Positions 5,071 through 5,820 of a stretch of 5,820 nucleotides of DNA are shown here, in pieces. The stretch is taken from the IMG/VR virus record IMGVR_UViG_2778261154_000012. One strand, written 5' to 3'. Within the stretch, counting starts at the first letter, position 1, and every line of letters starts with the position of its first letter. The notes beneath the pieces were generated by a model. The model made no database searches. It saw only the letters and a program-made list of their open reading frames with translations, and was not told the origin of the DNA. This stretch comes from a virus (taxonomy: Duplodnaviria > Heunggongvirae > Uroviricota > Caudoviricetes). The position numbers were made by a program, and so were the translations under genes.

Positions 5071-5700
5071 TTATTTAATCTGGATAAATGGTGTATTGGC
5101 ACCACTGGTCATGTATTGCGGCAGTGTACCGTTCCACTTGTTGATGGCTTCCAGCTCCATGACGCCTGGGTTCTGGCGTAGAGCTTCGCCGCGTAAACGA
5201 ATGGCATCGGCTTCTGCCTGGGCTTTTGTTCGAATGGCATCAGCCTGTCCGGCAGCTTCCGCACGTAGCATGTTGGCCTCCGCTTCACGTTGCTTGACTT
5301 CCTGTTCGCGCTGCAGGGTTTTCTGGTTTGCCGTGACTTTGGCGTTAATGCTGTCGATAACGGTTGGAGGGTATTCCGGTTTACCTACATAAGAGAGGCT
5401 CATTACCTGAATGCCGATGGGTGTCATCTCTTCCTGAATGTCTTTAAGTGCGGCATCCAGTAGTTCAGACTTGCCGCCGTCGATAAATTTGTCAGTGGTC
5501 ATTTTGCTGGCCAGCCGATTGAGTGCGTCGGCAATTTTCTGGCGCAGGTCAGTGTCGGTAATGTCATCCACGCCTTTGCGGTAAGTCTGAAAGACTGTGG
5601 TAACTTTGGATGGATCAACTTTGTAGGCCACGCCGATGTGATAGCCGATGGTTGTGCCGTCACTCATCTGGAAACTGAACGGTTCATCGTAGGTCTTCAT
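5071..5700 (-). CDS. SPFH/band-7 (stomatin/prohibitin/HflKC-like) domain protein, apparently lacking its N-terminal part
   Basis: The Ala/Glu/Gln/Arg-rich helical segment (…QREQEVKQREAEANMLRAEAAGQADAIRTKAQAEADAIRLRGEAL…) preceded by a beta-rich region is typical of SPFH proteins. ATG at 5700 has no Shine-Dalgarno, and SPFH-like sequence (GGSEVYIFPTFKQ) continues in frame upstream of it until stops at 5761-5763 and 5773-5775. Confidence 0.65.
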   Translation of the reverse strand: MKTYDEPFSFQMSDGTTIGYHIGVAYKVDPSKVTTVFQTYRKGVDDITDTDLRQKIADALNRLASKMTTDKFIDGGKSELLDAALKDIQEEMTPIGIQVMSLSYVGKPEYPPTVIDSINAKVTANQKTLQREQEVKQREAEANMLRAEAAGQADAIRTKAQAEADAIRLRGEALRQNPGVMELEAINKWNGTLPQYMTSGANTPFIQIK

Positions 5701-5819
5701 TTGCTTGAAGGTCGGGAAAATGTAAACTTCTGAACCGCCCCGGTTTTCCTGGAGAGTGTTTTATCTGTGAACTCAGGCTGCCAGATCATCGTTTCCGATG
5801 GAAGCATAATAAGCTTTTT
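5697..5819 (-). other. Open reading frame running off the window edge, in the -1 frame relative to the SPFH ORF; either a separate coupled upstream gene or the frameshifted N-terminal part of the SPFH gene
   Basis: The minus-strand frame starting at 5819 translates to …KKLIMLPSETMIWQPEFTDKTLSRKTGAVQKFTFSRPSSK and ends with a TGA that overlaps the SPFH ATG (aaATGa). Confidence 0.3.
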
Positions 5820-5820
5820 C

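Follow-up and report, generated by a model that had tools for sequence, protein, structure and literature searches.

The split N-terminus of the SPFH gene described here is, with a probability that we put at about 0.96, the result of an insertion of IS629 (in its IS1203 isoform) into a prophage gene, which makes the gene an ordinary insertion pseudogene. The window, by which we mean the whole 5,820-nucleotide stretch of DNA that was analysed, was identified through an exact-protein index as the entire contig NJNE01000136.1 (GCA_002467185.1), reverse-complemented. The kind of event is ordinary and already known, and no new biology is implied by it. A first-pass annotation, made from the letters of the window, had put the split down to a probable frameshift or to a coupled upstream gene; the N-terminus is indeed lost, and the inactivated remnant that it named among the outcomes was the right one, whereas both mechanisms have to give way to the IS629 insertion. 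The features needed to follow the argument are these:

1-77, minus strand: left end of IS2, with 77/77 identity at 20,752 places.
5071-5730, minus strand: prophage SPFH/Band_7 lipoprotein gene, 3′ fragment (codons 58-276 and the stop).
5071-5700, minus strand: the 209-aa ORF as gene-called, starting at the internal Met68 of the reconstructed 276-aa protein.
5697-5819, minus strand: open stretch of the −1 frame, spurious, running over the C-terminus of OrfB and the terminal repeat of the IS into 30 nt of SPFH DNA.
5727-5730, minus strand: GAAG, one of the two copies of the target-site duplication (4 bp), equal to codon E58 and the first base of V59.
5731-5820, minus strand: right (OrfB-distal) end of an IS3-family IS629/IS1203 element, clipped by the contig edge and ending ...GGGGCGGTTCA at 5731.
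About 5731-5755: imperfect terminal inverted repeat of IS629/IS1203.
5773-5820, minus strand: the last 15 OrfB codons, EKAYYASIGNDDLAA, and the TGA stop at 5775-5773, as translated from the window and from a complete IS.

The reading frames themselves are as they had been described. When the minus strand of 5697-5820 was read and translated in three frames, ATG 5700-5698 was found to open the 209-aa ORF, and SPFH-like reading to persist for 10 codons upstream of it (EVYIFPTFKQ, 5730-5701), with the same residues in intact orthologues. Upstream of 5730 the SPFH frame reads NTLQENRGGS and then meets TAA 5763-5761 and TGA 5775-5773, the two stops already reported at 5761 and 5773. The neighbouring (−1) frame is open to the contig edge, reading KKLIMLPSETMIWQPEFTDKTLSRKTGAVQKFTFSRPSSK before it ends at TGA 5699-5697, which overlaps ATG 5700 to give the ATGA that had been noticed.

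Comparison with intact genes places the boundary of the SPFH sequence at a single base. Against 5,426 complete E. coli genomes, a megablast search with 5060-5820 returned 25,146 matching places for the whole query, yet SPFH genes matched only query 91-761, corresponding to window 5730-5060, with 96-98.5% nucleotide identity to the intact E. coli genes. Homology of the window to all three intact orthologues ends exactly at 5730. In these three (E. coli C5, our locus L001; O157:H7 PV15-279; O145 RM9872) the gene is 828 nt long (275 aa) and its product begins MKKIIFALAIVLPTIGLVGCDRVEPGNVGIKVNKLGDDKGVGEVVGVGRYWTGWNTEVYIFPTFKQMKTY...; the Met of the window ORF is numbered 67 in that protein and 68 in the 276-aa reconstruction. 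The first-pass annotation had allowed for orthologues that start at the equivalent Met; those found, at 275 aa, start 66 codons upstream of it. At least 80% of a two-gene query comprising the 62-aa gene and the SPFH gene is carried in one place by 217 E. coli genomes. The 3′ fragment differs from L001 at 10 nucleotides, all synonymous, and is perfectly conserved at the protein level, which suggests that the gene was under purifying selection before the insertion and that the insertion is recent. Such selection would have preceded the insertion and says nothing on activity after it; likewise, the perfect conservation fits a recent insertion and is no proof of lost function.

A genuine ATGA-coupled pair does exist in the intact orthologues, at the true start of the gene. 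There, a 62-aa hydrophobic ORF (a 189-nt gene) overlaps the SPFH start by 4 nt as ATGA (2648-2836 and 2833-3660 in L001; 2148-2336 and 2333-3160 in L011 and L012), and GGGAGGG, a strong Shine-Dalgarno sequence, precedes that start. The conserved 62-aa ORF has no Pfam hit on record; a small membrane partner of this kind recalls the operon pairing of SPFH with NfeD.

The 90 bases upstream of the boundary belong to a different and highly repeated sequence. Window 5731-5820 is identical at 90/90 positions (E = 7e-39) to element copies annotated as IS3-like element IS1203 family transposase, and a search with this segment found 24,719 places in 4,075 of the 5,426 E. coli genomes, many of them 100% identical. 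The annotated IS1203 transposase CDS, which includes a programmed frameshift, runs toward the right end of the element and stops 42 nt short of it, position 2043 of locus L002 corresponding to window 5773. Thus, the TGA at 5775-5773 is the annotated transposase stop, and the residues read at the contig edge are the C-terminus of OrfB with its natural stop codon, in frame with the SPFH remnant by coincidence.

Contigs that extend beyond the repeat reveal the other side of the element. The identical 209-aa ORF occurs on six contigs besides that of the window, and three contigs are long enough to cross the repeat: UGFN01000001.1 (381 kb; L003), which is 100% identical to all 5820 window bases, the 5.16-Mb chromosome CP026875.1 (L004) and AERN01000089.1 (21 kb; L005). 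In each of them orfA/orfB of the IS lie immediately upstream of the 209-aa ORF and a 67-aa ORF follows beyond, with an IS of 1300-1310 bp, bounded by TGAACCGCCCCGG...CCGGGGCGGTTCA, standing between a 58-codon 5′ fragment and the 3′ fragment. The flanks read ...actGAAG/TGAACC... on one side and ...GGTTCA/GAAGttt on the other, and intact L001 has a single actGAAGttt. The 67-aa ORF consists of 58 SPFH codons followed by VNRPGNPGD and a stop, read from the left end of the IS. Removal of the IS together with one GAAG yields an uninterrupted frame of 831 nt and 276 codons, and no frame change is needed. The window alone holds one junction and one GAAG copy (5730-5727).

Further records agree on the arrangement. 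Two sequencing runs carry the 5′ and 3′ fragments each on separate short contigs, and both fragment proteins have been deposited from Shigella boydii ATCC 9905 (EFW53324.1 for the 5′ fragment; EFW53327.1, 209 aa, for the 3′ fragment), three accession numbers apart. The junction is absent from all 5,426 complete E. coli genomes, where the best coverage of a junction-spanning query was 88%, and the 37-nt IS/SPFH junction had no exact match among the GTDB species-representative genomes.

The complete copies show the family of the element. Over its 1310 bp, the full copy in L005 is 96.3% identical to an IS1203 copy from RefSeq; its inverted repeats match at 13/13 and then 9/9 positions, with TGAACCGCCCCGG at both ends and 22 of the first 25 positions in agreement. 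L004 and L005 each have a 91-aa ORF and, after it, one of 295 aa that carries HTH_21, rve, rve_3 and rve_2 domains. The element therefore has the imperfect inverted repeats with 5′-TG...CA-3′ ends of the IS3 family, the ...GGTTCA end lying at 5731 in the window; the −1 frameshift arrangement of orfA and orfB with a DDE (rve, integrase core) transposase, of which the window holds only the last 15 orfB codons; nucleotide identity to named copies; and a short target duplication. IS1203 is an isoform of IS629, whose target duplications are 3-4 bp long (PMC3271280). As a separate observation, the IS629 copy in L003 (8671-9970) is 1300 bp long, with one gap relative to the 1310-bp copy of L005, and only a 151-aa rve ORF is called in it; this copy is probably immobile.

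Taken together, these data are best accounted for by the following sequence of events. A 1310-bp IS629/IS1203 copy transposed into codon 58/59 of a lipoprotein-type SPFH/Band_7 gene, duplicating GAAG, and thereby cut the gene in two: a 58-codon 5′ piece that reads 9 codons into the IS to give a 67-aa product, and a 3′ piece of 219 codons that has no start of its own. Gene callers then settle on ATG 5700, the first one inside this piece, and call an SPFH protein of 209 aa. The short-read assembler halted 90 bp into the multi-copy IS, which leaves only the right end of the IS and the 3′ piece of the SPFH gene visible in the window. The nature of the IS end, the exact junction, the duplicated target, the place of the 5′ fragment in the three longer contigs and the restored frame are shown directly by the sequences. 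Copy-out-paste-in transposition is general in the IS3 family, and we infer that the IS arrived by this route. A preprint reports such a route for IS629 and related ISs that form a circular intermediate (bioRxiv 10.1101/2023.06.07.543989).

The domain content of the two pieces follows the same division. Against Pfam Band_7 (PF01145), the 209-aa ORF scores 84.2 bits (gathering cut-off 23.6) over profile positions 44-176 of 176, and the reconstructed protein scores 108.3 bits over positions 2-176. A complete domain with an N-terminal anchor is not found in the window ORF, which is without residues 1-67; only the 5′ fragment, on the far side of the IS, has the anchor. A lipobox (LVGC) was read directly in the sequence and agrees with the label of PHROG 200, lipoprotein, which the reconstructed protein matches with E = 7e-115. 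A PADLOC search of the reconstructed protein gave no match, and a role in known defence systems is thus not supported.

It is possible to accept the IS629 insertion and yet suppose that, in the isolate of the window, the IS additionally mediated a deletion or inversion that left the 5′ fragment non-adjacent or lost. The window ends inside the IS, so the adjacency is out of its view, and the region is IS-rich and strain-variable: L004 has one more IS, within the DUF5406 gene, and both L004 and L005 differ left of 2596. However, we consider such a rearrangement improbable, as L003, identical over all 5820 bases, has the simple insertion, and every long contig with the 5′ fragment continues through the IS into the 3′ fragment. 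What lies beyond the IS in GCA_002467185.1 we infer from L003, the identical contig of another assembly.

Less likely still, and in our view very doubtful, is the proposal that the ATGA marks the end of a separate, unrelated gene and that re-initiation at ATG 5700 makes a 209-aa SPFH fragment, soluble and truncated at its N-terminus, that retains some activity. In its favour, the ATGA overlap is real, IS629 orfB points the same way as the remnant, which makes read-through transcripts plausible, and the 3′ fragment is without amino-acid changes relative to L001. Nevertheless, the frame that ends at the ATGA is not that of orfB but lies across the orfB C-terminus and the terminal repeat; in the complete IS it extends over 80 codons without a stop, and a Pfam scan of the stretch gave no family match. 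The −1 frame (…QPEFTDKTLS…), offered by the first-pass annotation as a possible coupled gene, is thus IS DNA read out of frame and not a gene. The real orfB stop lies 73 nt upstream of ATG 5700, no Shine-Dalgarno sequence is found in the 30 nt before that ATG (GAAGTTTACATTTTCCCGACCTTCAAGCAA), and the product would be without signal peptide, lipobox and Band_7 positions 2-43. A sigma-70 promoter scan of 5000-5820 found no site, and hence no sign that the remnant is driven by a hybrid promoter or by one reading out of the IS. There is only a very slim chance that read-through from IS629 orfB gives low-level translation from ATG 5700 and that a cytoplasmic, anchor-less SPFH fragment is retained in the Shigella boydii lineage, where it might interfere with host SPFH assemblies (HflK/C, QmcA, YqiK); what speaks for such a fragment is the orientation of orfB and the intact 3′ reading frame.

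A 1-nt frameshift near 5751-5760 that splits one continuous SPFH gene between two frames, which the first-pass annotation had thought probable, can for practical purposes be set aside. Two minus-strand frames are indeed open on either side of this interval, and their joined reading, …FTDKTLQENRGGSEVYIFPTF…, had looked like the start of an SPFH domain. But homology to orthologues stops at 5730 and not at 5751-5760, an interval that falls inside the IS terminal repeat, and 5731-5820 is IS629/IS1203 DNA at 100% identity and not SPFH DNA. Band_7 aligns to the joined reading only from residue 29 (profile position 33), that is, from the IS/SPFH junction and nowhere upstream of it, so the resemblance to the SPFH motif is coincidental; QPEFTDKTL upstream of EVYIFPTF is found in none of the intact orthologues examined. 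The true N-terminal fragment extends the Band_7 match to profile position 2, whereas the hypothetical join adds nothing. The real N-terminus (MKKTIALVF...GWNTE), and with it the missing 58 codons, is found on the far side of the IS, at a distance of 1.3 kb, and no indel is needed to restore the frame. Finally, that the IS/SPFH junction is an assembly chimera is scarcely credible: although it lies 90 bp from a contig end and assemblers err at repeats, the identical junction is present in the complete chromosome CP026875.1 and in contigs of 381 kb and 21 kb, each with the far junction and the GAAG duplication, and also in two independent run-level assemblies.

With the IS629 insertion as the preferred reading, the 209-aa remnant is most likely dead, a judgement made from its sequence features: it is predicted to be non-functional because it is without the signal peptide, the lipobox cysteine, Band_7 positions 2-43 (the first quarter of the domain) and a ribosome-binding site.

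The setting of the gene is that of a lambdoid prophage, with the gene order 62-aa membrane ORF, SPFH, DUF5406, DUF4222, 48-aa ORF, DUF1233 and tyrosine integrase. Both edges of the contig are IS ends, IS2 on the left and IS629 on the right, and the window is unique DNA between two multi-copy IS elements. In NZ_AP018488.1, a CDS annotated as IS3-like element IS2 family transposase begins 15 nt past the 77-nt match. The IS2 end truncates a phage baseplate (Dit-like) gene, and a 182-aa ORF at 50-598 on the plus strand opens with IS2-derived codons. L004 carries a further IS3-family insertion (10991-12256; window-equivalent about 4710), encoding a 272-aa rve protein, inside the adjacent DUF5406 gene. 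The prophage is decaying through repeated IS hits. A DUF72 remnant of 133 aa (2193-2594, minus strand), which we take to be YecE-like, is flanked by the tyrosine integrase of the phage (2621-3934) and by a large serine recombinase of 507 aa (595-2118); the arrangement points to a single host gene cut by two different integrative elements. L004 and L005 diverge from the window left of 2596 and have baseplate genes directly after int.

These findings have consequences for annotation. The deposited 209-aa SPFH domain protein EFW53327.1 should be treated with caution, as it is what remains of the 3′ part of a 276-aa prophage lipoprotein gene disrupted by an IS, and a contig that breaks off 90 bp into a multi-copy IS can seem to carry a frameshifted gene start. 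The insertion could be used to mark the lineage of the Shigella boydii-type strains in which it occurs.

The interrupted gene corresponds to the SPFH/Band_7 lipoprotein gene (PHROG 200) of yecE-type Stx2 phages and phiP27, to which the 3′ fragment has 92-96.7% nucleotide identity across 16 phage records. The closest of these are phiP27 and Stx2a- and Stx2d-converting phages, one of which takes its name from the yecE site; in them the gene lies about 2.6 kb from the int end. It occupies the same position there, a few genes upstream of xis/int with DUF5406 and DUF4222 genes after it; the difference is its interruption in the window. GenBank phage records (e.g. LC567818.1, 45800-46459; AJ298298.1, 2480-3139) name the gene serine protease or putative serine protease, while Pfam gives Band_7 only, and the name seems to be a legacy misannotation that was passed on to the 67-aa 5′ remnant, deposited as serine protease.

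Frameshift pseudogenes and ATGA-coupled gene pairs share with this locus a superficial likeness, namely two open frames near the start of an ORF and an overlap of stop and start; unlike in either class, the upstream side here contains neither orthologous sequence nor a real gene. As candidate classes, both were rejected: for the frameshift pseudogene, comparison with the three intact orthologues did not place orthologous coding sequence on both sides of the shift, and for the translationally coupled pair, the upstream frame is not a real conserved gene, the orthologues differing entirely upstream of the equivalent Met. The close parallel is with the gene interruptions by IS629/IS1203 in Shigella and enterohaemorrhagic E. 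coli, which have the same ends, orfA/orfB, an rve transposase, a 3-4 bp duplication and many copies per genome (PMC3271280). Compared with these known insertions, the mechanism is no different, and the site is codon 58 of a prophage SPFH gene, in Shigella boydii ATCC 9905 and several other assemblies.
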